Part shown: positions 5,534 to 64,000 of the stretch, piece after piece
Layout of the letters: each line of letters starts with the position of its first letter
Numbering within the stretch: position 1 is the first letter of the stretch
Source: an uncultured Acidobacteriota bacterium
Lineage (GTDB): Bacteria; Acidobacteriota; UBA6911
DNA length: 64,000 nt
NCBI GenBank assembly: GCA_963827655.1
Contig: CAWHCF010000052.1
Coordinates: 32,001 to 96,000 of the forward strand
Direction of reading: 5' to 3'
Translations under genes and position numbers: made by a program
The notes under the pieces: generated by a model
The model's input: only the letters and a program-made list of their open reading frames with translations
Database searches by the model: none
What the model was told of the DNA's origin: nothing

Positions 5534-5688
5534 CTAATAGAACTGTTTATCTTGGGTTTTTGGGTTGTGATTGTCCAGGGTCATACAATCCGCCGGAATA
5601 ATAACGATAGAACTGTTACTTTGGGTTCTGGGTTCCGATTGTCCATGGTCACTCAATCCGCAATCTGCAATCCGCAATCCGCAATCGA
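5519..5688 (+). repeat. imperfect ~70 bp tandem duplication followed by a (CAATCCG)x5 heptamer array
   Basis: CGGAATA..ATAGAACTGTT..TTGGGTT.TGGGTT..GATTGTCCA.GGTCA..CAATCCGC occurs at 5519-5593 and 5594-5661; heptamers at 5654-5688. Confidence 0.8.
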
Positions 5689-14499: not shown

Positions 14500-15942
14500 A
14501 TGTTCCGAGCACACGCGAAGCTGATCACTGCTCTTCAGTTTTTCACCGACCTTTTCCTCTCTGCCGCGGCGTTTGCCCTGGCGTATTTCACGCGGACCCA
14601 CTTGGCCAAGGTGGTCCCACCGGGTTTGGAGAGCCTGCTGAACCCAATTCTGAACCCCCTGAGCTCCTACATCTGGATCCTGCTTCTGGCGCTTGGCTGG
14701 TGGGCTGTATCGGCATACTCGCTCGGGCTTTACCGTCTTTCGATGCGTCGATCGTATGCCGAAAGAATCCGAACGGTTCTGGAAAGCTCCCTGGTGCTGG
14801 GTTTATTCCTGGGCTTTCTTTCTTTTGCCCTGAGGCTGAATGTCAGCCGGCCGCTCATTTTTCTTTTCGTATTCTATCAGGCTGTAATCCTGACGCTGGC
14901 GCGCCTGCTATTAGCTCTGCATGCCAAAGGGAGCGCGCACCCGTCGGAAGCTCAGCGGAATATTGTCATCGTGGGCGACGGCTCGAAAGCTCGTGAAATG
15001 GGAGCATTGATCTCGAGCTATTCAGACTGGGGACTTGGAATCCTTGGCTACGTCGCGGTAAATGACGCCGGTACTAGAAGGAAAAGCCGGCAAGACGACG
15101 TGTTGGGAACCATTTCCGACATTCCTCGGATCATCGCGGATAATGTGGTCGACGAGATTATTTTTGTCGGCAGCGAGCCCGGCGACCTGGGTTCGTTCGA
15201 GGACGTCCTGCTCGCCTGCCGGGAGCAAGGGATCAGGACGCGTCTGGCGGCGGATTTCTTCCCGGCCAAGGTGTCCACTGTCTCGATGGAGTTCCTCGAG
15301 AACGTTCCGCTGATCACATTCAGCACGACCCCCGACCACCCGCTCTCTCTTTTCGTGAAGCGCGCCATGGACGTGGTTTTTTCCATTCTTCTGCTGATGG
15401 CCTCGCTCCCCCTGATGATCCTGGTCGGGCTTCTGGTGAAACTGACATCCAAAGGTCCGATTATCTACAGCCAAGTCCGCTGCGGACTTTATGGCCGCAA
15501 GTTCGTGCTCTACAAATTCCGGAGTATGCAAGAGGGCGCCCAGGATGTGCTCTGGGAGATCAAGCATCTGAACGAAATGGACGGACCGGTCTTCAAGATG
15601 CGCTTGGACCCCAGGGTCACGGTTCTGGGCAGGTTCCTTAGAAAGTATTCGATCGATGAGTGGCCTCAGTTCTGGAATGTGTTGAAAGGGGATATGAGCC
15701 TGGTTGGGCCGCGCGCTCCCCTGCCGGAGGAAGTTCTAGAGTACACCCGGTGGCAGCGTCGGCGGCTCTCGGTCAAGCCGGGGATCACCTGCTTGTGGCA
15801 AGTCTCGGGGCGCAACGAGATCGATTTTCATGAATGGATGAAGCTCGACCTGCACTACATCGATAATTGGTCGCTACTGCTCGACCTTAAGATACTGTTG
15901 CGTACGTTTCCAGTGGTCCTTTTCGGCAAAGGAGCCCGGTAG
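14500..15942 (+). CDS. undecaprenyl-phosphate sugar-1-phosphate transferase (WcaJ/WbaP family priming glycosyltransferase)
   Basis: N-terminal TM helices; KRAMD, KFRSM, DPRVT, SIDEWPQFWNVLKGDMSLVGPR, KPGIT, DLHYI..WS. Confidence 0.93.
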   Translation: MFRAHAKLITALQFFTDLFLSAAAFALAYFTRTHLAKVVPPGLESLLNPILNPLSSYIWILLLALGWWAVSAYSLGLYRLSMRRSYAERIRTVLESSLVLGLFLGFLSFALRLNVSRPLIFLFVFYQAVILTLARLLLALHAKGSAHPSEAQRNIVIVGDGSKAREMGALISSYSDWGLGILGYVAVNDAGTRRKSRQDDVLGTISDIPRIIADNVVDEIIFVGSEPGDLGSFEDVLLACREQGIRTRLAADFFPAKVSTVSMEFLENVPLITFSTTPDHPLSLFVKRAMDVVFSILLLMASLPLMILVGLLVKLTSKGPIIYSQVRCGLYGRKFVLYKFRSMQEGAQDVLWEIKHLNEMDGPVFKMRLDPRVTVLGRFLRKYSIDEWPQFWNVLKGDMSLVGPRAPLPEEVLEYTRWQRRRLSVKPGITCLWQVSGRNEIDFHEWMKLDLHYIDNWSLLLDLKILLRTFPVVLFGKGAR

Positions 15943-15943
15943 G

Positions 15944-16009
15944 CCGATTGACGATTTACGATTGACGATTGGCGATTGGGTCAATCTGCAATCCGAAATC
16001 CGCAATCGG
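15944..16009. repeat. palindromic heptamer array (CGATTGA)x5 / (CAATCCG)x4
   Basis: between convergent genes; overlaps the 3' end of the ABC transporter gene. Confidence 0.85.
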
Positions 16010-17782
16010 TAGTTGGTCCTTGTACTGCAGTTGATACAGCTTCCAGTAAATCCCTTTCAGCTTGAGTAACTCCTGATGAGTCCCCATCTCGCGGATGCGG
16101 CCGCGATGAACAACGATGATCCGATCCGCACTCTGAATGGTTGACAGACGATGCGCAATGATGATGGAGGTTCGCCCGGCAAGGAGCTTTTCCAGAGCGT
16201 CGCGAATGAGGATTTCCGTATCGGTGTCGATACTGGAAGTGGCCTCGTCCAGGACCAGAATCTTGGGGTTGTGGGCCAGGGCCCGGGCAAATGCCAGGAG
16301 CTGTTTCTGTCCCACCGAAAGCGTGGCGCCTCGCTCTCCGACCTTGGCGCTGTAGCCTCCCTTCAGGCGCTCGATGAACCGGGAAGCATGGGCGGTCTCC
16401 GCCGCCCAACGGACCTGCTGATCCGTTATACGCTCGCTTCCGAGACGAATGTTCTCGGCTATGTTTCCGGAAAAGAGGAAGACATCCTGCAGCACGATGC
16501 CTACGGAACGCCGCAGACCCTGGAGGTTGTAATCGCGTATGTCGACGTTGTCGACCAGGATTTCGCCTTTTTGAACGTCGTAGAAGCGGCTCAGCAGGTT
16601 TATGATCGTGGACTTGCCGGCTCCCGTGGCCCCCACCAACGCGACCCTTTCACCCGGTTCGACCTTGAACGAAATGTCGTCTAGAACCGCGTCCCCGGGG
16701 TTGTAAGCAAAGCTGACCCCGCGAAACTCGACCCGTCCTTCCTGAATTGTGCTTGCTTTGGGCTCTGGCGGCGAGACAATCGCGGGAGGCGTGTCCAGCA
16801 GTTTGAAAATACGTTCTGAAGAGGCCATCGCCGACTGAAGAATGGTGTACTTTTCGCTCAGGTCTGAAATCGGACGAAAGAACCTCTCGGAATACTGAAC
16901 GAATGCAACCAGCGCCCCGAGTGTCAGAGTGCCCTCGAAGACCCGGAGCCCGCCGTACCAGACGATCAGGGCAATTGCCAAAGCTCCCAGCAGTTCGAGC
17001 AAGGGGAAAAAGACGGCATAGTAAAAGATTGATTGCAGGTTGGCATTCAGATGCTCGCGATTGATTCCGGTGAAGCGCGTGTATTGCTTTTTTTCCTGGA
17101 CGAACAGCTGCACGACCGAAGTCCCGGTGATGTTCTCCTGCAGAAAAGCGCTGATGCGCGCAATGGCCGTCCGCACACGGCGGAACGAGTCGCGTACCTT
17201 AAGTTTGAACACGAAGGTCACGAGAAAAAGCAGGGGAACGACGGAGAATATTGTCAGGGCCAGCTTGAAGTCGATCAGGAAAAGAATGACGACGATACCC
17301 GCGAGAGTGCAGACGTCTCCGAAGACGGAGATGACCCCCGATGTAAACAGCTCGTTCAACGTGTCGACGTCCGTGGTGACGCGCGTCATGAGTCGGCCCA
17401 CCGGATTTCGGTCGAAAAAAGCGACCTCCAGTCTCTGCAAGTGCCGAAACAGCTGCACTCTCAGGTCATACATGATTCTCTGGCCCATCAGGTTCATTAC
17501 CCAGGTTTGGCCAAAGCTAAGCGCAAAGACCGCGATCAATATCACGAGGTAAAGAGCCCCGATCCGGTTCAACCCGGCCAGGTCGCCGTTGCGAATATTC
17601 TGATCGATGGCGATCTTGGTCAGGTAGGGGGGAACTACGGCAAGAGACGAAGCGGCGATTATGTACAGTATGGCGAGCGCGGCTGATCTCCGGTAGGGCG
17701 CAACGTAGGTCAGCAGCCGCTTCATAAGACGGGCGTCATAAGCCTTGCCGAGTACCTGTTCCTCGCGATGATCCGGTTCCAT
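15956..17782 (-). CDS. ABC exporter, fused TMD+NBD (MdlB-like half of a heterodimer)
   Basis: GATGAGKS, LSVGQKQ, LVLDEATS, IAHRLST. Confidence 0.93.
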   Translation of the reverse strand: MEPDHREEQVLGKAYDARLMKRLLTYVAPYRRSAALAILYIIAASSLAVVPPYLTKIAIDQNIRNGDLAGLNRIGALYLVILIAVFALSFGQTWVMNLMGQRIMYDLRVQLFRHLQRLEVAFFDRNPVGRLMTRVTTDVDTLNELFTSGVISVFGDVCTLAGIVVILFLIDFKLALTIFSVVPLLFLVTFVFKLKVRDSFRRVRTAIARISAFLQENITGTSVVQLFVQEKKQYTRFTGINREHLNANLQSIFYYAVFFPLLELLGALAIALIVWYGGLRVFEGTLTLGALVAFVQYSERFFRPISDLSEKYTILQSAMASSERIFKLLDTPPAIVSPPEPKASTIQEGRVEFRGVSFAYNPGDAVLDDISFKVEPGERVALVGATGAGKSTIINLLSRFYDVQKGEILVDNVDIRDYNLQGLRRSVGIVLQDVFLFSGNIAENIRLGSERITDQQVRWAAETAHASRFIERLKGGYSAKVGERGATLSVGQKQLLAFARALAHNPKILVLDEATSSIDTDTEILIRDALEKLLAGRTSIIIAHRLSTIQSADRIIVVHRGRIREMGTHQELLKLKGIYWKLYQLQYKDQLPIADFGLQIDPIANRQS

Positions 17783-24030: not shown

Positions 24031-24105
24031 AGGCGCGTAGCTCAGGGGGAGAGCACTTCCTTGACACGGAAGGGGTCAGCGGTTCAAATCCGCTCGCGCC
24101 TACCA
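24031..24105 (+). tRNA. tRNA-Val (GAC)
   Basis: acceptor stem AGGCGCG/CGCGCCT, anticodon arm CTTCC-TTGACAC-GGAAG, T-loop GGTTCAAATCC, encoded CCA. Confidence 0.97.
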
Positions 24106-31210: not shown

Positions 31211-32670
31211 TCACTGGAAGTTCTCCACCAACATCAGGTCGTCGATGGAGGAGTCAATTCGGGAATAGAAGATCGTGCGGCCGTCCCGAGATGCGGTAAG
31301 GCCGAGGTATACATTGCCGAGATTGTGCGCCACCGTCGTGGACCTGCGGGTCGCGAAGTCGAAGTACTGAAGCCGTGTCTCACCCGAGGGCCGGTCGATA
31401 TAGAGATTGCCTCCCTCGCCCGAGGGTCGGTCGATATAATAAATGCCTCGGTTGAGCACAGCGAAAGCTCCTAGAACAACGCTGTCCAGCAACTTGAGCG
31501 GAACGCCGCCGGAAGTGGGCAGGCGCCACAACGGGCTCGGTGTGTCCATCCTCTCGTTGTAATAGACGTAAGTGCCGTCGGGCGACTCGAAGGCCGCGAA
31601 TCCACCGTTGTTTGTGACTTGGCTGGCATTCCCGCCGGATGCCGGCATTTTCCATATCTGACGCTGTCCTGTACGGGTCGAAGTGAAATAGATCGACTTG
31701 CCGTCCCGCGAGAAACTGGGTCGGAAATCGGAGGCGGGATGAGAAGTTAGGTTCTGTGGCTTACCACCCGCGGCGGGAATAACGTAGACCTCAAACTGCC
31801 CTTCGGGATTGGATTGGAACACAATCCGTTCGCCGTCGGGAGACCAGCGGGGGGCGCCTGAGATTGCACGCACGAAGGTGAGCTGGACGGCATTGGACCC
31901 GTCAGGATCGGCCAGCCAGATTTCCCATTCTCCGGAACGATTCGATGGAAAGGCCACCCGGCGGCCGTCGGGAGAAAGGTGGGGGGTGGACTCGCTTCTC
32001 GTCGAGGAGATAGAGACGACCGGCGGCGCGGAGGCCGTCGCGCCTGGAGCGGAGGTCTCGACACGCCAGATATTGGAGTCCTGGAAACTGCGAACGTAGA
32101 CCAGACGAGACGGCAGCCCGGGCCGGGGGCGCGAAACTACCGGCATCAGACCGTCCTCGCCTACAAAAGGCAACCTGGCTGGTGTGGTTTCGCCGCCATC
32201 TTTATCGGCAACCACCAACCTCCAAAGATTTCCCCGGAGACTACCTCCAGCGGTGGAAAAGAGAATCTCTTGACTGCCGGGCATCCACGTGGGGTAGCCC
32301 GCATCCAGCGTGGCCGGCGTGAGCCGCTGCGGCTCACCTGCGGGGATCACGCCCTCTTCGCAGCGGAAGCCGGTAAAGCTCAGCATTTTCGAGGCTGCCG
32401 ACGGCGGTAGACCAGCCACCTGCCGTCGGGAGAAATGGTTGGGTTGGTGTCGCCAAACGCAGGGGGTTGCGGATTGGTCAACTGCCTTTTCTCTCCGCTC
32501 TCGAGCGCAACGACGAACAAAGCAGCCGGCTTGCCCTCACCCGGGGAGTCCGTAACAATCAAACAGTTGCTGTCAGGACACCAGGCAAGATACGGCGGAA
32601 TGATGAAGTAGGTGTCGCGTACGCGGATCTCGGCCAATTTGCGCTCCGGACCGCCCAGTGGCGGGATCGC
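31211..32670 (-). pseudogene. 5'-truncated TolB/PD40 beta-propeller gene (C-terminal part of a kinase- or wHTH-PD40 protein)
   Basis: repeated SPDG WD40-like units and DDLMLVENF C-terminus; frameshift near 32400; no native start, the reading frame begins inside a palindromic repeat. Confidence 0.7.
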
Positions 32671-32734
32671 CTTCGTGTCTTCGTGGTTAGAGCTTTCTAA
32701 CAAATACCGCGAAGACGCGAAGAAACACCAAGAA
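32671..32734. repeat. 9-mer-unit palindromic element (CTTCGTGTCTTCGTGGT...ACCGCGAAGACGCGAAG)
   Basis: 17 bp inverted arms at 32671-32687 and 32706-32722 with 2 mismatches. Confidence 0.85.
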
Positions 32735-32758
32735 TCCTGCCCAAAAAGCAATACAAAA

Positions 32759-33789: not shown

Positions 33790-33868
33790 CTTCGCGCCCT
33801 TAGCGTCTTCGCGGTCACTTTTGTGCACCAGCACTAACCGCGGAAGACATACAGAAGACGTAAAGAAG
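33790..33868. repeat. 9-mer-unit palindromic element
   Basis: CTTCGCGCCCTTAGCGTCTTCGCGGT...ACCGCGGAAGAC..GAAGACGTAAAGAAG. Confidence 0.7.
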
Positions 33869-33870
33869 GC

Positions 33871-38030: not shown

Positions 38031-38047
38031 GAACAGGCAACCACCAA

Positions 38048-38113
38048 GACAGAAGTCAGAAGTCAGGAGTCAGAATAATTCTGGCTTCTGGCTCCTGGCT
38101 TCTTGCTTCTGTC
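38048..38113. repeat. palindromic heptamer array (AGAAGTC)n / (TTCTGGC)n
   Basis: GACAGAAGTCAGAAGTCAGGAGTCAGAA..TTCTGGCTTCTGGCTCCTGGCTTCTTGCTTCTGTC between convergent genes. Confidence 0.85.
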
Positions 38114-41321: not shown

Positions 41322-41400
41322 TCTTAGTGTTTCTTCGTGTCTTCACGGTCAGCGCAACAGATAACAGACAGGACACAAAAGACACGAAGAAACACCAAGA
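41322..41400. repeat. 9-mer-unit palindromic element
   Basis: arms TCTTAGTGTTTCTTCGTGTCTT and AAGACACGAAGAAACACCAAGA, 21 of 22 complementary. Confidence 0.85.
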
Positions 41401-41478
41401 AATCCGTTCTTGTCAGTCAGGTGTCACTTGGAGGCCCGGAAGGTGTGGAATCTACAGGGATGCAGGGGCAAAAACTCC

Positions 41479-47738: not shown

Positions 47739-47808
47739 CCTGGTGTCTTCGAGTCTTCGTGGTTAGGGCTACGAAACAAGTACCACCAGGACACCAAGAA
47801 CACTAAGA
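47739..47808. repeat. 9-mer-unit palindromic element
   Basis: CCTGGTGTCTTCGAGTCTTCGTGGT...ACCACCAGGACACCAAGAACACTAAG. Confidence 0.8.
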
Positions 47809-56768: not shown

Positions 56769-57362
56769 TCAATCGTCAATCGTCAATCGTAAATCGTCAA
56801 TCGCGATGATCCATTCTGCGGCATCGGATAGGTCGCGCGCTACGTAATCAGGCTGCCGGCTCCACGTCTGCTTGTCGCTGGAGTACTCCCCTTCGCCGTA
56901 ACCGGAGAGGACGAGGATAGAGCGCGCCCGGGCCCGAAATCCCGTTTCCAGGTCACGGTAGCGATCGCCGACCATGAAACTGGCGGCGAGGTCCACGTCA
57001 AACTCGCGGGCCGCCCGCTCGAGCATTCCAAGGCCTGGCTTGCGGCAATCGCATTGACGCCGATACAAGCTGACGGTGCCCTCGGGATGGTGCGGGCAAT
57101 AGTAGATGGCGTCCAAATAGGCGCCTTCCCGTGCCAACTCCTGTCGCAGCTTGGCGTGAATCCTTTGAACCACCTCTTCAGAAAAGTATCCGCGAGCGAC
57201 TCCTGATTGGTTCGTCACCAGGATAACCCGAAGCCCGGCCCGGTTGAGCCTTCGGATGGCTGGAGCCGCGCAAGGGTAAAGTCTGAAGCGCTCCACCTGA
57301 TCGATGTAGCCAGTCTCCTCACTGACCGTGCCGTCGCGATCGATGAAGACAGCCTGGCGCAT
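56769..57362 (-). CDS. gmhB: D-glycero-manno-heptose 1,7-bisphosphate phosphatase
   Basis: FIDRDGT, VTNQSGVARG, CPHHP..CDCRKP, MVGD. Confidence 0.93.
   Translation of the reverse strand: MRQAVFIDRDGTVSEETGYIDQVERFRLYPCAAPAIRRLNRAGLRVILVTNQSGVARGYFSEEVVQRIHAKLRQELAREGAYLDAIYYCPHHPEGTVSLYRRQCDCRKPGLGMLERAAREFDVDLAASFMVGDRYRDLETGFRARARSILVLSGYGEGEYSSDKQTWSRQPDYVARDLSDAAEWIIAIDDLRLTIDD
56770..56803. repeat. (CAATCGT)x5 heptamer array
   Basis: overlaps the gmhB 3' end. Confidence 0.85.
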
Positions 57363-57374
57363 CGAAACCCCCAC

Positions 57375-57465
57375 ATCGATTTACGATTGACGATTGACGA
57401 TTGTGGGTGCCGCCTCTCCGCGCCGGTTCAAATCGTCAATCGTCAATCGTCAATCGTAAATCGAT
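57375..57465. repeat. perfect 29 bp inverted repeat made of CGATTGA heptamers
   Basis: ATCGATTTACGATTGACGATTGACGATTG (57375-57403) and its exact reverse complement (57437-57465). Confidence 0.92.
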
Positions 57466-58548
57466 CAGAAATCCCCGCGGTTCCCGGTCGAGCTGTTTCA
57501 CCGCCACGCTCAAAACCTGCTCAACTGAAATGCGGGTCATACAGCGAAAGTCAATCGGGCACTCGCGCAGGAAACAGGGGCTGCACTCTACCGCTTGCTT
57601 GATCACATGAGCGCGCGGGCTGAATGGCCCGGTGGCGGTTTCACTGGTCGATCCAAAGATCGCGATTTGCGGCACGTCAAGCGCCGCAGCCAGGTGCATG
57701 GGGCCTGAATCATTGGTAATGAACAAGCTGCAATCCTTGATGAGAGCCATCAGCTGGCCTAATGAAGTCAGGCCCGAGCATACGACCGGCGTGTGCCGCA
57801 TCTGGCCGGCGATCTCCCGGGCCAGGTGGCGTTCATCAGCGGCTCCGAAAATGAGGATCTTGGCCCCGCGCTTTTCCGCCAGCTCGTCGGCCACGCGGGC
57901 ATACCGGTCTGTGAGCCATCGCTTGGCCCAGCCATAGGCTGCGCCCGGATTCAGCCCGATGATAATCTGACCTGGCAAGGCGCCGCTTTTGGTGAGCAAT
58001 TCCCTTGCCGCCGCGGCGTCCGCGTCCCTCACTCGGACGTCGACCGAAGGGCGATACGCGCCGTTTCGCCACGGCGTGCCAGGCAAGAGTCCCGCACCCG
58101 AGAGGATACCGAGATAGTAGTAGATCTGATGGACCTTGAGCACGTCGGGGTCGATCTTGCATCGGTGAGTAAGAAACAGACCTCGACCGTCGCGCGTGTA
58201 GCCCAGTCGCTGGGGAATGCCCGCCCACCAGGCGATCAGGGCGGCCTCCATCGCGTTTTGAAGAAGTATCGCCAGGTCGAATCGCCTCTGTCGAATCTCG
58301 CGTACGATTCTTCTCAGGCCGCTCCAGCCCTGGTGCGCTCCACGCTTGTCATACTCGATAATCTCGTCAACAAAATCGACGGCGGAATATACATCCTTCA
58401 CCCAGGGCCGTACCAGGAGGGAGACCTCCGCCTGTGGAAAAAGACGGCGGATCTCCTTCAACGCAGGCACGGACATGACGGCATCACCGATCCAGTTGGT
58501 GCCTCGAACCAGGATTTTCCGCACGCGTCCGGGCTCAATCGGTCTCAT
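57436..58548 (-). CDS. waaF: LPS heptosyltransferase II (GT9)
   Basis: ILVRGTNWIGDAVMS, NPGAAYG.AKRW, TNDSGPMHLAAA, CSPC..RECP. Confidence 0.92.
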   Translation of the reverse strand: MRPIEPGRVRKILVRGTNWIGDAVMSVPALKEIRRLFPQAEVSLLVRPWVKDVYSAVDFVDEIIEYDKRGAHQGWSGLRRIVREIRQRRFDLAILLQNAMEAALIAWWAGIPQRLGYTRDGRGLFLTHRCKIDPDVLKVHQIYYYLGILSGAGLLPGTPWRNGAYRPSVDVRVRDADAAAARELLTKSGALPGQIIIGLNPGAAYGWAKRWLTDRYARVADELAEKRGAKILIFGAADERHLAREIAGQMRHTPVVCSGLTSLGQLMALIKDCSLFITNDSGPMHLAAALDVPQIAIFGSTSETATGPFSPRAHVIKQAVECSPCFLRECPIDFRCMTRISVEQVLSVAVKQLDREPRGFLIDLRLTIDD

Positions 58549-59599
58549 TTGGACTTTCAATCAGCGTTCCGACGATTCGCTGAAAGACTTCCGGCTCATG
58601 CATGCGGGTCGATTGCACCGACACCAGAAGAGGAAACTCCGGCGCCGCGGATAACTTCACCGCGTCTTTTTCGGTCGTGATCATCGCTTCGGCTCGACTG
58701 CTTCGAGCCTCCTTGACGCACTGGACCAACGCCCGTGGGCTCAACGGTTGATGATCGCGAAAAAACCGGGTTCCCACGATGCGCACGCCGAGAGTCTTGA
58801 TATCGTCGCGAAACCGCTCCGGATTTCCTACCGCGGCGACCAGAAAGGCCGAACCGGGATTGCTGTTGTTTCCGGTTATCCGTGAAGTGCTCCAGCGCTC
58901 ATACGGGACAAGGGCGTCCACCCTCTGAACACAATGCAGGATCTGGGCCCTGGGATTGATTTCTCTCACGGAAGCTTCCAGCGGATCGGCGCTCCCCTGG
59001 TAACGTCCGTTAATAAGAACAACCTGGGCGCGCTCGAGACCCGTCAGCGGCTCGCGCAGCGTACCGCGGGGGAAGACGCGATTGGCGGAGAGCGGCTGTG
59101 CGCGATCGACCACTACTATGTCGAGGTCACGGTGGAGCTTTCGATGCTGGAAACCGTCGTCCAGAATGAACACCGCATCGGGTCTTTGCTCGAGGACCCT
59201 TTGTCCCGCGGCCCGTCGGTCTTTAGATACTCCCAGCCATATTGCAGGCACGCGGCGGCGAACCAGAGCCGGTTCATCGCCGGCGCGCCGGACGAGATCC
59301 GAGACTTCGTCTTCAGGGCCAAATACCTGGATCCTGTCCCGGGAGTGTCTGCCATATCCCCGGCTCAGAAGCGCCGGGGCAGCGTTTAGCTTGCCCAGGA
59401 GCTCGGCCAGGTAGATGGCCAGCGGAGTCTTGCCGGTTCCGCCGAGTGTCAGATTGCCGATGCTGATGACCGGCCGGGGCAAGCGAGTCTGACGCAACCA
59501 CCCTGAGGCATAAAGTTCGTTGCGCGCCCGCACGATGGCTTCGAAGACAAAGCTCGGAACCGACAGGTAGGGTGACGGGGTCGCCGAAACAAAGGACAT
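58535..59599 (-). CDS. lpxK: tetraacyldisaccharide 4'-kinase
   Basis: ISIGNLTLGGTGKTP, LSRGYG, GDEP, LDDGFQH, TTEKDAVK. Confidence 0.95.
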   Translation of the reverse strand: MSFVSATPSPYLSVPSFVFEAIVRARNELYASGWLRQTRLPRPVISIGNLTLGGTGKTPLAIYLAELLGKLNAAPALLSRGYGRHSRDRIQVFGPEDEVSDLVRRAGDEPALVRRRVPAIWLGVSKDRRAAGQRVLEQRPDAVFILDDGFQHRKLHRDLDIVVVDRAQPLSANRVFPRGTLREPLTGLERAQVVLINGRYQGSADPLEASVREINPRAQILHCVQRVDALVPYERWSTSRITGNNSNPGSAFLVAAVGNPERFRDDIKTLGVRIVGTRFFRDHQPLSPRALVQCVKEARSSRAEAMITTEKDAVKLSAAPEFPLLVSVQSTRMHEPEVFQRIVGTLIESPNETD

Positions 59600-59605
59600 G
59601 CGTGA

Positions 59606-60883
59606 TTATGGAATACCGGAAAGAAGAAAATCCATGGTGTTATCGGTCGCCCCCTGGTTTTGCCTGAAGGTGCTGGCAGCGCGCTGCCCGAGGATATTCC
59701 GAGCCCTGGTATTCCGGAGAAGCTCAATCAAGGCGCCAGGAAGTGATTCCAGAGTGGACTGGCGGGCTGCCTGCTCGTGCAAGAAAACCCGGGCTATCTC
59801 CCTGAAATTCGACATTTCCGGACCAAAGATGATGGCCTTGCCGAATGCGGCCGGCTCGAGCGGATTGTGTCCCCCGTGAGGAAGAAGGAAACTGCCTCCG
59901 ACTACAGCCACGGTTGCGAGAGAATAGACCGCGCGCAGCTCGCCAATGGTATCGAGCAGCACGACGTCGGCTGATAAACCGCCGTCCAATTCGGTGCGGC
60001 GCGCGAAGGCCACGCCAGAGCCTTTGAGAAGATCTGCTACTTCGTCGAATCGTTCAGGATGACGCGGGGCCAGAATCATGCGGGCGTTAGAAATCGTCTG
60101 CCGCACTTTACCAAATGCCGCCAAAAAGTGCGGCTCTTCTCCCTTCATGCTGCTTCCCACCACAATGGTGACCACCCCTTGATCCAGGCGCAGGGTCGAT
60201 TTGATCTTTGACAGCAAGTCGCGGTGCGGTTCCAGTTCGGGTATGGGGAAGTCGAATTTGAGGTTCCCTGTCACTCTGACCCGCCGCTCCTCGGCCCCCA
60301 GTTCCAGGAAGCGGTTCTTGTCTTCATGGGATTGTGTCCCGATCACCGTCAGGTGGTGGAGCATGCTGCCGGCCAGCATCTTGAGGCGCCGGTAGCGCCG
60401 CAGCGACCGGTCGGAAATTCTCCCGTTGGCAACGAAGACCGGAATCTCCTTTCGCGCGCAGGCTCTGAGGAAGTTCGGCCACAATTCCGTTTCCATGAGG
60501 ACAACGGCGCGCGGCTCCACTCTCGAGAGAAACCGCTTGACGCTGAAGTTCCAGTCAAAAGGGAAGTAGAAGACATCGGCCGCGGGCGACAGTTCTTTCC
60601 GGGCCAGCGCCTGGCCCGTCAACGTAACGGTAGAGCAGACAACCGGAAGCTGCGGCCGCGTCTTCTGGAGAGACAAGACCACAGGTTTGGCCGCCAGGAC
60701 CTCACCGACCGAGACACAATGGATCCAGAGAGGTCTCTGCCCGGGATGCGCATCCGGAAGCTTCAAGCCCAGCCGCTGTCGGAAGTTGGCTATGTACTTC
60801 TTCTCCCTGATCGCCTTATATATCCAGTAGGGAGAACCGACCAAGGCTGAAACGGTGAGAACCAGAGAGTACAGGAAATACAT
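59606..60883 (-). CDS. waaA: 3-deoxy-D-manno-octulosonic acid transferase
   Basis: WIHCVSVGE, ETELWPN, NGRIS, GNLKFD, PRHPERF, DTIGEL, GGHNPLEP. Confidence 0.95.
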   Translation of the reverse strand: MYFLYSLVLTVSALVGSPYWIYKAIREKKYIANFRQRLGLKLPDAHPGQRPLWIHCVSVGEVLAAKPVVLSLQKTRPQLPVVCSTVTLTGQALARKELSPAADVFYFPFDWNFSVKRFLSRVEPRAVVLMETELWPNFLRACARKEIPVFVANGRISDRSLRRYRRLKMLAGSMLHHLTVIGTQSHEDKNRFLELGAEERRVRVTGNLKFDFPIPELEPHRDLLSKIKSTLRLDQGVVTIVVGSSMKGEEPHFLAAFGKVRQTISNARMILAPRHPERFDEVADLLKGSGVAFARRTELDGGLSADVVLLDTIGELRAVYSLATVAVVGGSFLLPHGGHNPLEPAAFGKAIIFGPEMSNFREIARVFLHEQAARQSTLESLPGALIELLRNTRARNILGQRAASTFRQNQGATDNTMDFLLSGIP

Positions 60884-60972
60884 GGCAGTAATAATTCCTT
60901 AATCGAGGCGCAAATGCTCTCGCCCGCATATTCTAATCAGGACCTCACCCCGTGGAAACATTTGCGTTTCGC

Positions 60973-61026
60973 TCTTCTTGGTGTGTTACTTGACGCGCCA
61001 ACCACGAAGGCGCGAAGACACCCAGG
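60973..61026. repeat. 9-mer-unit element abutting cassette A
   Basis: TCTTCTTGGTG...AACCACGAAGGCGCGAAGACACCCAGG. Confidence 0.65.
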
Positions 61027-61035
61027 GCAGGATGT

Positions 61036-61338
61036 GTGCTTAACCGTTTTGGGAACCGTCCTCGTTCCCGTTCCCGTCCACGTTCCCGATCAATCGACGT
61101 CGAGGCGCTTGGTGAGCTTAATCAACATCGACACGACGCGTTCGAGCATCGCCTTGCTGGCGCGCATCGATAAGCTTGAGCCATACGCAAACGTCAAGTA
61201 TGACTGCGGACTCGGTCGCTGGCCCAGCGGGGCTGAGATAATAGCGGCGCAATCGGCATTACTGTAGGATGCCGCCGGGAAAACGGGAACGGAAACGGGA
61301 ACGTGTACGAGGAGGGAACCCCCAGTTTGGTTAAGCGC
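61036..61338 (-). mobile_element. TIR-bounded cassette A with a degenerate C-terminal half of a four-helix-bundle protein gene
   Basis: ends GTGCTTAACC / GGTTAAGCGC; subterminal GGGAAC hexamer arrays; remnant RRYYLS..ATESA.ILDVC..LKLID..KAMLERVVSMLIKLTKRLDVD*. Confidence 0.75.
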
Positions 61339-61376
61339 CTAAGGCCAGGATCGTCCCCTTTTGGTTAATTCCCGGC

Positions 61377-61387
61377 TGTGCTAAACT
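61377..61387 (+). promoter_or_regulatory. extended -10 promoter for the aminotransferase gene
   Basis: TGTGCTAAACT. Confidence 0.45.
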
Positions 61388-61447
61388 TCGCGTCTTTCAT
61401 CGATGAGAAGCGGGCGCCCGCGCGCTTCTCCGTGAGGGAACGGATCC

Positions 61448-62620
61448 ATGAAGCCAATCGTTAAACGCCGCGTGTTCACGCCAGGTCCCACCCCGTTGCT
61501 GCCGGAAGCGATTTTGCCGGCACTGGTGGCGCCCATGCATCACCGGAAGGGGGATTTCAAGGCGCTCTTTCGTGAGGTGCAACAGGGCCTCGGACAAGTC
61601 TTCAAGACACGAAACGAGATCCTGCTCCTAGGTTGCTCCGGAAGCGGGGCCATGGAAGCTGCCATGACCAACCTGCTGGCTCCCGGACAGAAGGCCGTCG
61701 TGGCGGTTGCGGGAAAGTTCGGCGAGCGCTGGATGGAGCTGGCTGAAAAATTCGGCGTCCGAGCTGAAGTGGTGAAGGTGCCCTACGGCCAGTCAGTGAC
61801 GCCAGACCAGATTTCCGCCGCGCTGTCTAAAGATCCTGAGATCAGCGCCGTTTTTGTCCAGGCCACAGAAACATCCACGGGCGCCCGAATGGATATTGAA
61901 AGAATCGGAGCCCTGGTCAAACGCCAGGAAAACACCCTCCTCGTGGTCGACGCTATAACGGGCCTGGGAACGTCGCCCCTGCACACCGACGAGTGGGGGC
62001 TCGACATCGTCATTGGCGGATCTCAAAAAGCGTTCATGGTTCCTCCCGGGGTTGCGATGATGTCGGTCAGCGCGAAGGCCTGGAAGCAGATTGAGAAATG
62101 TGCTCGCCCTCGCTACTACTTTGACCTCGTGCGCGAACGGGCGGGGCAGCGAGAGGGCCAGAGCGCATTTACGCCATCCATATCCATCATTCAGGGATTA
62201 AAGGCTTCGCTTGATCTCATCCTTAAGGAAGGTGTGGATGGTCTGGTATTCAACGCCTCGCTGCAGGCGGGCGCTACGCGGGCGGCCATTACCAGCTGGG
62301 GGATGAAAATATTCCCGGACTGCCCCAGCGACGCGACTACCGCGTTCGTCCCGCCGTCGGGACTCAGCGCCGCCAAGGTGCAGTCGCTCATGGAAGAAAG
62401 GTTTGGCGTATTGATAAGCGGTGGTCAGGGAAACCTCAAGGGAAAGCTTCTCCGGATCGGTCACCTGGGCTACTTCGACTTTCTGGAAACGCTCGGGATG
62501 ATCGCATGCCTTGAACTCTCCTTCGTGGAGGCGGGCGCAACCATCGAGCTGGGCACCGGAAGCCGGGCTGCCGTTGAATACTACCGGCAAGCAACGGGAG
62601 CAGGACGCCCAGGTGCTTGA
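61448..62620 (+). CDS. class V PLP aminotransferase (alanine/serine-glyoxylate family)
   Basis: FTPGPT, SGSGAMEAA, GKFGERW, ETSTG, VDAIT, GSQKAFMVPPG, RIGHLG. Confidence 0.92.
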   Translation: MKPIVKRRVFTPGPTPLLPEAILPALVAPMHHRKGDFKALFREVQQGLGQVFKTRNEILLLGCSGSGAMEAAMTNLLAPGQKAVVAVAGKFGERWMELAEKFGVRAEVVKVPYGQSVTPDQISAALSKDPEISAVFVQATETSTGARMDIERIGALVKRQENTLLVVDAITGLGTSPLHTDEWGLDIVIGGSQKAFMVPPGVAMMSVSAKAWKQIEKCARPRYYFDLVRERAGQREGQSAFTPSISIIQGLKASLDLILKEGVDGLVFNASLQAGATRAAITSWGMKIFPDCPSDATTAFVPPSGLSAAKVQSLMEERFGVLISGGQGNLKGKLLRIGHLGYFDFLETLGMIACLELSFVEAGATIELGTGSRAAVEYYRQATGAGRPGA

Positions 62621-62887
62621 GAACTGGGGATTCCCTCCTCGTACACGTTCCCGTTTCCGTTCCCGTTTTCCGCGGTATTCTATAGCAATGCCATTTGATC
62701 ACGAGCGTCTCGACGTCTACCAGGTGGCCCTGGACTTCCTGCTGCTGGCCGGTGAAGCCAGTGAGCACCTGCCACGAGGGCGCAGCCACCCATCAGACCA
62801 GCTGACGAGGGCATCCAGCTGACGTCGATCGATCGGGAACGTGCACGGGAACGGGAACGAGGACGGTTCTCCAAAACGGTTAAGCAC
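62613..62887 (+). mobile_element. TIR-bounded cassette B with the N-terminal half of a four-helix-bundle protein gene
   Basis: both arms match cassette A in inverted orientation; ends GTGCTTGA / GGTTAAGCAC. Confidence 0.78.
62688..62822 (+). pseudogene. truncated four-helix-bundle protein (23S rRNA IVS / bAvd-like family), N-terminal 44 aa
   Basis: MPFDHERLDVYQVALDF...LPRGR...DQLTRASS*, the characteristic family N-terminus. Confidence 0.8.
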
Positions 62888-62927
62888 CCCTAAGGCCCTT
62901 TGGGGCCTTTAGTAGTGGATTTGTCTT

Positions 62928-64000
62928 ATGACAAGGATCCTGATCCTGGAAGAAATAGCGCCGGCCGGGCTCGACCTGCTCAAAGCTGAGCCAAGCTTTG
63001 ACGTGCAGGAACTCTACGACGAGGACACCGGCAAGATTCAGCAGGCCCTCGCCGAGGCTGAAGTCCTGGTGGTTCGCAGCCGTACCAAGGTCACGGCCCA
63101 GCTGCTCGAAAGCGCCCCGAAGCTCAAGATCGTCGGTCGCCCGGGAACCGGGGTGGATAACGTCGACGTCCCTGCGGCCACTCGCCGCGGCATCGTAGTC
63201 ATGAACACGCCGGCAGGAAACAGCATCAGCGCTGCCGAACACACCATGGGACTCCTGCTCGCGCTGATGAGGCGAATTCCTCAGGCCGATTCCTCGATCA
63301 AGCAAGGAAAATGGGAAAGGCAGCGGTTTATTGGAACCGAACTGGACGAAAAAGTACTGGGCGTCATCGGCTACGGCAAGATCGGCATCGAGGTGGTGAA
63401 GCGCGCCCAAAGCTTCAGGATGAGGGTTGTGGTGTTCGACCCATACGTTTCCGACGCGCTAGCCCGGGACCATAACCTCCGCATGGTCAGTCTGGAGGAG
63501 CTTCTGGCGGAATCGGACATCGTGACACTGCATTGCCCGTTGACCGCAACGACCCGAAAGCTCATCAACACCGGCACGCTTGCCATGATGAAAGATGGCG
63601 CCTGCCTGATCAACGCCGCCCGAGGAGAACTGGTCGACGAAGGCGCGCTGCTGAACGCGTTGAAATCGGGAAAGCTGGCCGGAGCCGCCCTGGATGTCTT
63701 TGCCAACGAACCCAAACCCGACCCGGAGCTGGTCAGACTCCCGAGCGTCATCGCCACGCCCCACATCGGAGCCTCGACCGTCGAGGCCCAGGAGAAGGTA
63801 GGAGTAGATATTTCGATCCAGATCCGGGACTACTTCCGGGATGGGATTGTCCGGAATGCGGTTAATTTTCCCTCGGTTTCGCTGGCAGAATATCGCAGGC
63901 TGGCGCCCTATCTCGAACTCGGGGAGCGGCTGGGAAGTTTCGCCGGCCAGATCTGCAACGGCAGGATGGAGGAAGTGACGGTTCGCTACTACGGCGAGCT
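62928..64000 (+). CDS. serA: D-3-phosphoglycerate dehydrogenase (3' partial)
   Basis: VVRS.TKVT, GTGVDNVD, NTPAGN..SAAEH, GYGKIG, INAARG, ALDVF..EP, TPHIGAST.EAQ. Confidence 0.95.
   Translation, partial: MTRILILEEIAPAGLDLLKAEPSFDVQELYDEDTGKIQQALAEAEVLVVRSRTKVTAQLLESAPKLKIVGRPGTGVDNVDVPAATRRGIVVMNTPAGNSISAAEHTMGLLLALMRRIPQADSSIKQGKWERQRFIGTELDEKVLGVIGYGKIGIEVVKRAQSFRMRVVVFDPYVSDALARDHNLRMVSLEELLAESDIVTLHCPLTATTRKLINTGTLAMMKDGACLINAARGELVDEGALLNALKSGKLAGAALDVFANEPKPDPELVRLPSVIATPHIGASTVEAQEKVGVDISIQIRDYFRDGIVRNAVNFPSVSLAEYRRLAPYLELGERLGSFAGQICNGRMEEVTVRYYGE

Follow-up and report, generated by a model that had tools for sequence, protein, structure and literature searches.

Two decayed four-helix-bundle gene cassettes with hexamer-array inverted arms bracket an aminotransferase gene in an Acidobacteriota chromosome

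The 64-kb stretch of DNA analysed here (the window) spans positions 32,001 to 96,000 of contig CAWHCF010000052.1, from an uncultured Acidobacteriota bacterium (assembly GCA_963827655.1). It is ordinary core chromosome, with recA, thrS, infC, pheST, uvrA, tgt, relA/spoT and lipopolysaccharide (LPS) core genes. Along the plus strand it contains the start of a Kdo-transferase gene, a small element that we call cassette A, a gene encoding a class-V aminotransferase, a second such element, cassette B (275 nt), and a serA-like gene (Table 1). The two cassettes lie in opposite orientation, about 1.3 kb apart, such that they bracket the aminotransferase gene. Each holds a broken piece of a gene for a four-helix-bundle (4HB) protein of the PF05635/TIGR02436 family between two arms built on tandem hexamers, and we consider it probable that A and B are two dead copies of one lineage of small selfish cassette, of the intervening-sequence (IVS) type and with foldback-like arms. 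The coordinates and sequences of both cassettes are as claimed in a preliminary description of this DNA.

The cassettes carry different pieces of one kind of four-helix-bundle gene

Cassette B retains residues 1-44 of its 118-aa 4HB relatives in PF05635/TIGR02436, and cassette A retains residues 62-118 with one frameshift, such that residues 62-93 are read in frame 1 (61121-61252) and residues 97-118 in frame 2 (61093-61197). The preliminary description had presented the two as complementary halves of the gene, the N-terminal half in B and a decayed C-terminal half in A. The assignment of the two ends is correct, and the decay of A, which is read in two frames, also includes a frameshift; the halves, however, do not abut, because residues 45-61 are missing from both cassettes (A lacks residues 2-61). 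The start codon (ATGCC) and the final three codons (GACGTCGAT) survive in both cassettes, and the deletion in B joins codon 44 to these last codons, which are also present in A. Since each copy has both ends of the gene, A and B are separate cassettes with internal deletions of their own and not the halves of one split cassette. An intact open reading frame (ORF) of about 110-130 aa is absent, as B stops after 44 codons and A is both deleted and frameshifted, and the two genes are pseudogenes that would no longer encode a protein.

Comparison with full-length proteins supports the earlier assignment of both peptides to the 4HB family. Over its 44 aa, B is 86% identical to the relative designated P0241 and 82% identical to P0242, P0243 and P0247 (blastp). 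Frame 1 of A is 62-64% identical to P0242 and P0247 over 42 aa (blastp), and frame 2 is 86-87% identical to the same two proteins over 21-23 aa, up to the common C-terminus KRLDVD. With the protein of an intact cassette (L010, described below) as query, tblastn found B at E 7e-13 and A at E 6e-5, and a subfamily hidden Markov model (HMM) built from 120 homologues matched B at E 6.6e-16 (model positions 7-64) and A at E 5.6e-4 (positions 85-120) and 0.066 (positions 112-136). P0242 and P0247 match PF05635 at E 7e-21 and 2e-22, and their nearest solved structure is that of XCC0516 (2gsc_A, E 4.5e-8). When the 44 residues of B were compared with longer proteins, 69 of 79 candidates were relatives, mostly of 116-120 aa, and PF05635 was found in all but one of the relatives listed. 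P0241 is itself a frameshifted, near-full-length relative, and its out-of-frame tail matches the peptide in the ATG frame of A at 15 of 18 residues. The same protein is therefore closest to B at one end and resembles A at the other, which places A and B in one close lineage.

The arms are hexamer arrays predicted to fold into long hairpins

In an alignment of B with the reverse complement of A, the arms match throughout and the interiors are unalignable. The inverted repeats formed by the paired arms (I1 and I2, Table 1) are the longest in the window, as judged by a whole-window repeat search, and they are non-random. The two arms of a cassette form an imperfect inverted repeat based on GTNCCC and GGGNAC hexamers, and the pattern TCCTCGTnCnCGTTCCCGTnnnCGTTCCCG fits all four arms by inspection. 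The 19-nt array core GTTCCCGTTTCCGTTCCCG, allowing up to three mismatches, occurs eight times in the window, always within one of the four arms, where 0.01 occurrences are expected by chance and none of 100 shuffled sequences reached eight. Terminal inverted repeats are present, consisting of GYGCTTAACC termini and about 50 nt of paired arm, and the whole arms include the outer GYGCTTAACC..AACTGGGG and CCAAAACGGTTAAGCAC parts. The 10-mer GTGCTTAACC alone is not significant (five matches with up to one mismatch against 1.93 expected, and five reached in 4 of 100 shuffles), and three of its five near-matches are cassette termini. The upstream terminus of B is degenerate, reading GTGCTTGAG where A has GCGCTTAACCAA, with 2 nt lost.

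Each cassette is predicted to form one long hairpin, arm on arm to the outer termini, in both minimum-free-energy and centroid folds, with an arm stem of ~55-60 bp. The predicted fold of A has an energy of -137.5 kcal/mol (z -5.64), matched by none of 100 shuffled sequences, and that of B has an energy of -118.7 kcal/mol (z -3.58), matched by none of 200. The hexamer arrays had been described as mutually inverted within each cassette, and the GTNCCC and GGGNAC arms do pair with each other in these folds.

The sequence C(CC)TAAGGCC follows both cassettes on the plus strand (62888-62912 and 61339-61350). After B, this motif forms part of a small hairpin (AAGGCCC TTTG GGGCCTT) that shortly precedes serA. 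The motif might extend the terminal repeat outwards or mark a preferred target.

Table 1. Coordinates in the window of the two cassettes, their parts and the adjacent genes
Feature	Coordinates	Strand	Remarks
Kdo-transferase (waaA-like) gene	59606-60883	minus	PF04413
Cassette A	61036-61338	minus	
A 3' arm	61036-61101	minus	outer terminus GTGCTTAACC (61036-61045); GGGAAC-type array 61058-61088, GTTCCC on the plus strand
A decayed 4HB remnant	61093-61259	minus	start codon 61257-61259, then deletion junction; stop codon 61090-61092
A 5' arm	61278-61338	minus	hexamer array 61281-61303; outer terminus GCGCTTAACC (61329-61338)
Class-V aminotransferase gene, serC-like	61448-62620	plus	PF00266, E 3e-24; upstream of serA-like gene
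Cassette B	62613-62887	plus	
B 5' arm	62613-62671	plus	degenerate outer terminus GTGCTTGAG holding the aminotransferase TGA; hexamer array 62646-62668
B truncated 4HB gene	62688-62822	plus	residues 1-44 (MPFDHERLDVYQ...DQLTRASS), then TGA
B 3' arm	62821-62887	plus	hexamer array 62834-62859; outer terminus GGTTAAGCAC (62878-62887)
serA-like 2-hydroxyacid dehydrogenase gene	62928 onward	plus	same orientation as aminotransferase gene
Inverted repeat I1	61047-61101 / 62821-62875		55 nt, 93% identity
Inverted repeat I2	61278-61327 / 62622-62671		50 nt, 98% identity

Cassette B overlaps the end of the aminotransferase gene

The last two codons of the aminotransferase gene and its stop codon, TGA (62618-62620), fall within the terminal repeat of B. 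The preliminary description had proposed that B supplies this stop codon, which holds; it had placed the codon at the downstream end of B, whereas it lies in the upstream (5') terminus. The predicted aminotransferase is 390 aa long and ends in ...QATGAGRPGA. Its nearest orthologue, P0121, is 98% identical and 388 aa long and ends in ...QATGVSRP, two codons earlier and with different last residues, and more distant orthologues are 383-386 aa long. The earlier end of P0121 fits an insertion of B at the aminotransferase stop codon after the strains diverged, such that B would be a recent arrival. The best aminotransferase matches bear Acidobacteria or Terriglobia names.

The consequence for the locus is small, namely two pseudogenes, two large hairpins and a 2-aa change at the C-terminus of the aminotransferase. 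The cassette gene has the orientation of an adjacent gene in all four cases that could be judged. B runs with both the aminotransferase gene and serA, A with the Kdo-transferase gene, L010 with the genes around it and L039 (see below) with an upstream Na+/H+ exchanger gene. Although the number is small (n=4), such co-orientation would suit dependence on read-through transcription from the host.

Intact cassettes and deletion derivatives occur in other genomes

A scan of genome contigs with a degenerate array pattern (20 specified bases), which proved too permissive, gave at least 121 loci, and the source genome is not among the loci listed. Most of the 121 listed, many of them from actinobacteria and other groups, are plain hexamer arrays without a 4HB remnant. 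Sorting of the loci into coding and intergenic ones by longest open frame was dropped, as 69 of 78 fell 'inside' a frame of at least 200 aa, in high-GC DNA. Copies of the exact A/B element number two, counted within the window.

The unit that the preliminary description had postulated, a gene of ~118 aa between two arms, exists intact at two of these loci. L010, in an Acidobacteriota metagenome-assembled genome (MAG), consists of an array, a 126-aa 4HB ORF (PF05635, E 6e-19; TIGR02436, E 1e-18) and an inverted array, and sits between RecA-like and impB/mucB-family genes on the same strand. L039/L040, in a 'delta proteobacterium' MAG, contains an intact 4HB gene that is 72% identical to that of L010 and matches PF05635 at E 1e-22 and TIGR02436 at E 2e-21 (the latter for L039). 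Between this gene and the 3' array (L039:4990-5860) lies a C-terminal fragment (...IKDLKRALKADRLSCHRFWANQFRLLLHAAAYVLMYMLRR...) whose motifs look transposase-like. A third locus, L118 (Krumholzibacteriia), has the 3' part of a 4HB gene followed by an array. The intact cassettes lie in unrelated contexts, and their neighbours are housekeeping genes.

Decay by different internal deletions, as had been suggested for A and B, has counterparts elsewhere. Two contigs of one Planctomycetota MAG, L044 and L081, carry ~240-nt elements with a common internal deletion, in which the arrays enclose a fusion of 'M(N/T)FDHER' to '..LRVVSMLTR..'. The two elements are 87.1% identical over ungapped columns (189 identical of 242 columns, 25 of them gapped), and their flanks match at only 28 of 57 and 18 of 42 positions. 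Alike elements in unlike flanks indicate that a deletion derivative was copied to a second locus. P0254 is a further derivative, with the N-terminal end fused to the C-terminal end.

Among the loci listed, gene-less GTTCCC/GGGAAC hairpins occur in Holophagae, Thermoanaerobaculia, Longimicrobiales, Coxiellaceae, alphaproteobacterial and 'delta' MAGs, some of them nested with other tandem-repeat arrays. L076:4990-5460 and L016:4990-5410 have outer GTTCCC/GGGAAC arms around nested arrays of other short tandem repeats (e.g., CGCAGATTA, GGAATC, GGCAGTT) and no gene, an arrangement suggestive of hairpin elements inserted within each other. In a Coxiellaceae MAG, L102:290-430 is a short gene-less hairpin whose arms begin TCGTACACGTTCCCG..., like the 5' arm in the window (96.6% identity over 29 nt). 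In a plasmid collection, the only 4HB genes were three distant ones (38-39% identity), on plasmids of cyanobacteria, and cassette A had no match at the DNA level.

The association of gene and array extends across the 4HB family

The L010 protein retrieved 3109 of 3130 candidate proteins at E up to 1e-3. Among its 120 best homologues, 90 have C-terminal (G[TNS..]) repeats of three or more units, which correspond to a translated GGGNAC array, and 16 have an N-terminal extension of at least 12 aa, in 14 of which RS, VP or FP repeats correspond to a translated GTNCCC array. The homologues come mostly from very short contigs, as would be expected if assemblies break at repeated elements. A search with P0242 against 1.84 billion 50%-identity representatives retrieved 5825 at E up to 1e-3, of which 1562 remain at a cut-off of 1e-10. 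We checked 147 of the 150 listed for repeats, leaving out three with earlier ids, and period-2 repeats of four or more units were present in 46 of these more distant representatives. The repeats are varied (e.g., GH, GK, GT, PE, RA and VP), from which it seems that the hexamer differs between lineages.

The position of the stop codon relative to the array also varies. In the lineage of the window it precedes the array (KRLDVD, then stop), and in others it follows the array. A stop codon that may lie on either side suggests that the arrays most likely act as nucleic acid rather than as protein tails.

In one sub-clade (L010:2255-2770, P0001-P0007 and P0113), the ORF begins before the 5' array, in L010 after an AAGGAG motif, and the array is read as an N-terminal extension that is conserved and rich in Arg and Ser (M..RSRSR.RPRSRWNESGTTVFDHERLD...). 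Here, translation of the array may be real. Many representatives (P0315, P0316, P0327, P0329 and some 40 others), about 245-330 aa in length, align twice with the 118-aa query and are tandem double 4HB proteins.

Comparison with known systems

The nearest known parallel is the IVS of 23S rRNA. The passages on the Coxiella IVS in one published account describe an insert of 428-444 nt in which a 28-bp stem of terminal inverted repeats encloses an S23p (PF05635) ORF; the insert is excised by RNase III, as are those of Leptospira and Salmonella, it is called selfish and suspected of horizontal transfer, and its ORF is undergoing reductive evolution (PMC4990558). Members of the same gene family thus lie, in the rRNA of Coxiella burnetii and Leptospira as in the window, in the loop of a stem-bounded element, there of ~430-500 nt, with a decaying ORF (PMC4990558). 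In contrast to the rRNA inserts, the window copies are located between protein-coding genes or at the end of one, their arms are tandem hexamers and about twice as long, and two copies lie side by side, with deletion derivatives.

The closest full-length relatives of the fragments, P0242 and P0247, are members of PF05635, a family that a second account relates to Avd, the accessory protein of diversity-generating retroelements (DGRs) (PMC10053308). Unlike intact PF05635 genes, those of the window are present only as two broken, non-overlapping pieces, and unlike the context of Avd in DGRs, the window has no visible reverse transcriptase or template/variable repeat. We rejected a DGR reading of the locus, as no reverse transcriptase domain was found in 56 large window ORFs and no fitting pair of direct repeats near the cassettes.

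In eukaryotic Foldback and Galileo elements, the long terminal inverted repeats are composed of short tandem repeats. The cassettes resemble these foldback elements, and miniature inverted-repeat transposable elements (MITEs), in their long inverted arms with tandem short repeats and in the apparent propagation of non-autonomous copies with internal deletions (L044/L081). They differ from both in that no transposase or target-site duplication was identified, the 4HB gene is the sole cargo and the hosts are prokaryotes. In the literature that we searched, which included few subscription journals, PF05635 cassettes with inverted arms of hexamer arrays were not described, nor were their deletion derivatives. 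What is already known comprises the gene family, the IVS concept and MITE-like decay; the setting outside rRNA, the foldback-like arms and the breadth of the gene-array association are apparently new. The form is widespread and, as it appears, undescribed.

A model for the origin of the cassettes, and its alternatives

According to the reading that we prefer, an intact cassette would consist of a ~118-aa PF05635/TIGR02436 4HB gene within imperfect inverted arms of ~60 nt, the core of each arm being a short array of GTNCCC hexamers, GGGNAC on the opposite arm. Cassette A would have landed in the spacer between the divergent Kdo-transferase and aminotransferase genes, pointing to the former, and cassette B at the 3' end of the aminotransferase gene, in the spacer before serA, where its terminal repeat now supplies two codons and the stop. 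Each copy would then have lost a different internal piece of its gene, and A would also have gained a frameshift. The cassette would spread as a DNA unit, much like a MITE or foldback element, and the copying of deletion derivatives, as in the pair L044 and L081, suggests that mobilisation in trans is possible. Mobility is indirectly supported by this pair, by the unrelated contexts of the cassettes and by the aminotransferase end of P0121. During read-through from the host, the paired arms could form a long double-stranded RNA stem, which RNase III might cut as in the published 23S rRNA IVSs, and removal of the insert at the RNA level would allow a cassette to be tolerated inside operons.

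The non-overlap of the retained parts in the gene body (residues 1-44 versus 62-118), and the inverted arrangement of two copies only 1.3 kb apart, would also be expected if a single ancestral cassette had been split by one rearrangement, an inversion or inverted duplication with its breakpoint inside the gene. A single breakpoint would leave one arm per half, however, whereas each copy has a 5' and a 3' arm, a start codon and the final codons GACGTCGAT; neither copy contains residues 45-61; and independent internal deletions of a like kind are found elsewhere (L044/L081 and P0254). We rejected this explanation, which is hardly tenable, on the anatomy of the cassettes, with both arms and both gene ends in each. 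It is also very improbable that the pair is a functional invertible or composite unit, in which recombination between the arms would invert the aminotransferase gene as a switch or transport it as a composite transposon. Inverted repeats of 50-55 nt and 93-98% identity do bracket a 1.3-kb gene, but no recombinase or transposase lies nearby among the window ORFs scanned, the aminotransferase gene is co-oriented with the downstream serA-like gene as in an operon, and the closest orthologue appears to be without the B junction, which suggests two separate insertions and not a travelling unit.

The hairpins could instead be structural or regulatory elements of the host, REP-like or terminator-like RNA stabilisers in which the gene remnants are incidental and nothing is mobile. 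The window has many other intergenic hairpins with stems of tandem 6-8-mers, one of which folds far better on one strand (-45.1 versus -35.3 kcal/mol), as an RNA element would, and short gene-less GTTCCC/GGGAAC hairpins are common in other phyla. We nevertheless judge this explanation unlikely, given that the interiors are clearly pieces of a 4HB gene, that the unit of gene plus arms is intact in other phyla and in unrelated contexts, and that another genome has one deleted derivative in duplicate, at two loci. Furthermore, a scan for promoters and terminators gave nothing above shuffled sequences near the cassettes and no terminator-like site, and Rfam (E up to 1) gave no match in 60800-63000.

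Several observations weigh against decayed copies of a selfish IVS-type cassette. No transposase or recombinase was found among 62 window ORFs scanned with Pfam. No clear direct repeat that would represent a target-site duplication flanks either cassette, by inspection of the sequence around the approximate ends. The outer termini GTGCTTAACC..AACTGGGG are present in none of the 121 loci listed (blastn-short of both cassettes matched arrays only), and among those loci a 4HB remnant lies beside the array in only L010, L039/L040, L118, L044, L081 and L030. Pfam and NCBIfam scans of the 44 aa of B and of both A frames, which are short pieces, gave no family at E up to 10; the profile search proposed in the preliminary description accordingly failed with these general models on the separate pieces and succeeded with the subfamily HMM and with BLAST against bona fide members. 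The difference between the aminotransferase C-terminus and that of P0121 is known at the protein level only. Cleavage of the cassette arms by RNase III is proposed purely by analogy, and arm duplex energies show no strand asymmetry of consistent direction in six elements, such that nothing favours a role at the RNA level over one at the DNA level.

Implications for the PF05635/TIGR02436 family

To our knowledge, PF05635/TIGR02436 proteins have no established function outside DGRs, and the family is very large, a single member retrieving thousands of 50%-identity representatives (see above). The analysis indicates that a whole clade of 4HB genes travels in hairpin cassettes with lineage-specific hexamer arrays, and that the cassettes decay to gene-less hairpins, which gives the family a concrete, testable nucleic-acid partner. 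The finding also joins three subjects that are usually kept apart, namely intervening sequences of rRNA, orphan 4HB genes and the tandem-repeat hairpins that abound in Acidobacteria-like and Planctomycetes-like genomes. For annotation, the cassettes matter as a source of false small ORFs, as sequences that lengthen or end neighbouring genes and, probably, as breakpoints in metagenome assemblies.

A broader proposal, which we offer as a speculation with the odds clearly against it, is that the orphan PF05635 genes of soil and sediment phyla are the cargo, and perhaps a working part, of an undescribed class of prokaryotic foldback elements. The arms would be recognised by a pentameric 4HB protein, full-length cassettes would seed the gene-less hairpins of Acidobacteriota, Planctomycetota, Myxococcota and others, and the 23S IVS, possibly also Avd, would be domesticated or specialised offshoots.

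Other features of the window

A single tRNA-Val (GAC) gene is located at 24031-24105, in the 578-nt gap upstream of thrS. A second hairpin family, of tandem heptamers CGATTGA / CAATCGT, occurs at 1109-1142, 5654-5686, 15945-16007, 56769-56803 and 57375-57465, with predicted folds of -51.3 kcal/mol (z -6.8) for 57370-57470 and -31.5 kcal/mol (z -4.7) for 15940-16012. Heptamer arrays read into the ends of two minus-strand ORFs (56769-57374 and 57436-58560), both of which end in ...DLRLTIDD. A third intergenic family, of the CTTCGYG / CGCGAAG type, is located at 2205-2234, 32671-32735, 33800-33870, 41322-41402, 47747-47800 and 60965-61025, the last of these directly outside cassette A; its folds are weak (z -1.7 at 60960-61030 and z -2.75 at 32668-32740). 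The hairpin with the marked strand difference in folding energy lies between convergent genes at 38046-38111 and is composed of AGAAGTCAG, repeated ~4 times, opposite TTCTGGC, repeated ~4.7 times. It pairs via G-U on the plus strand only (-45.1 kcal/mol, against -35.3 on the minus strand), which suggests a strand-specific element acting at the RNA level.

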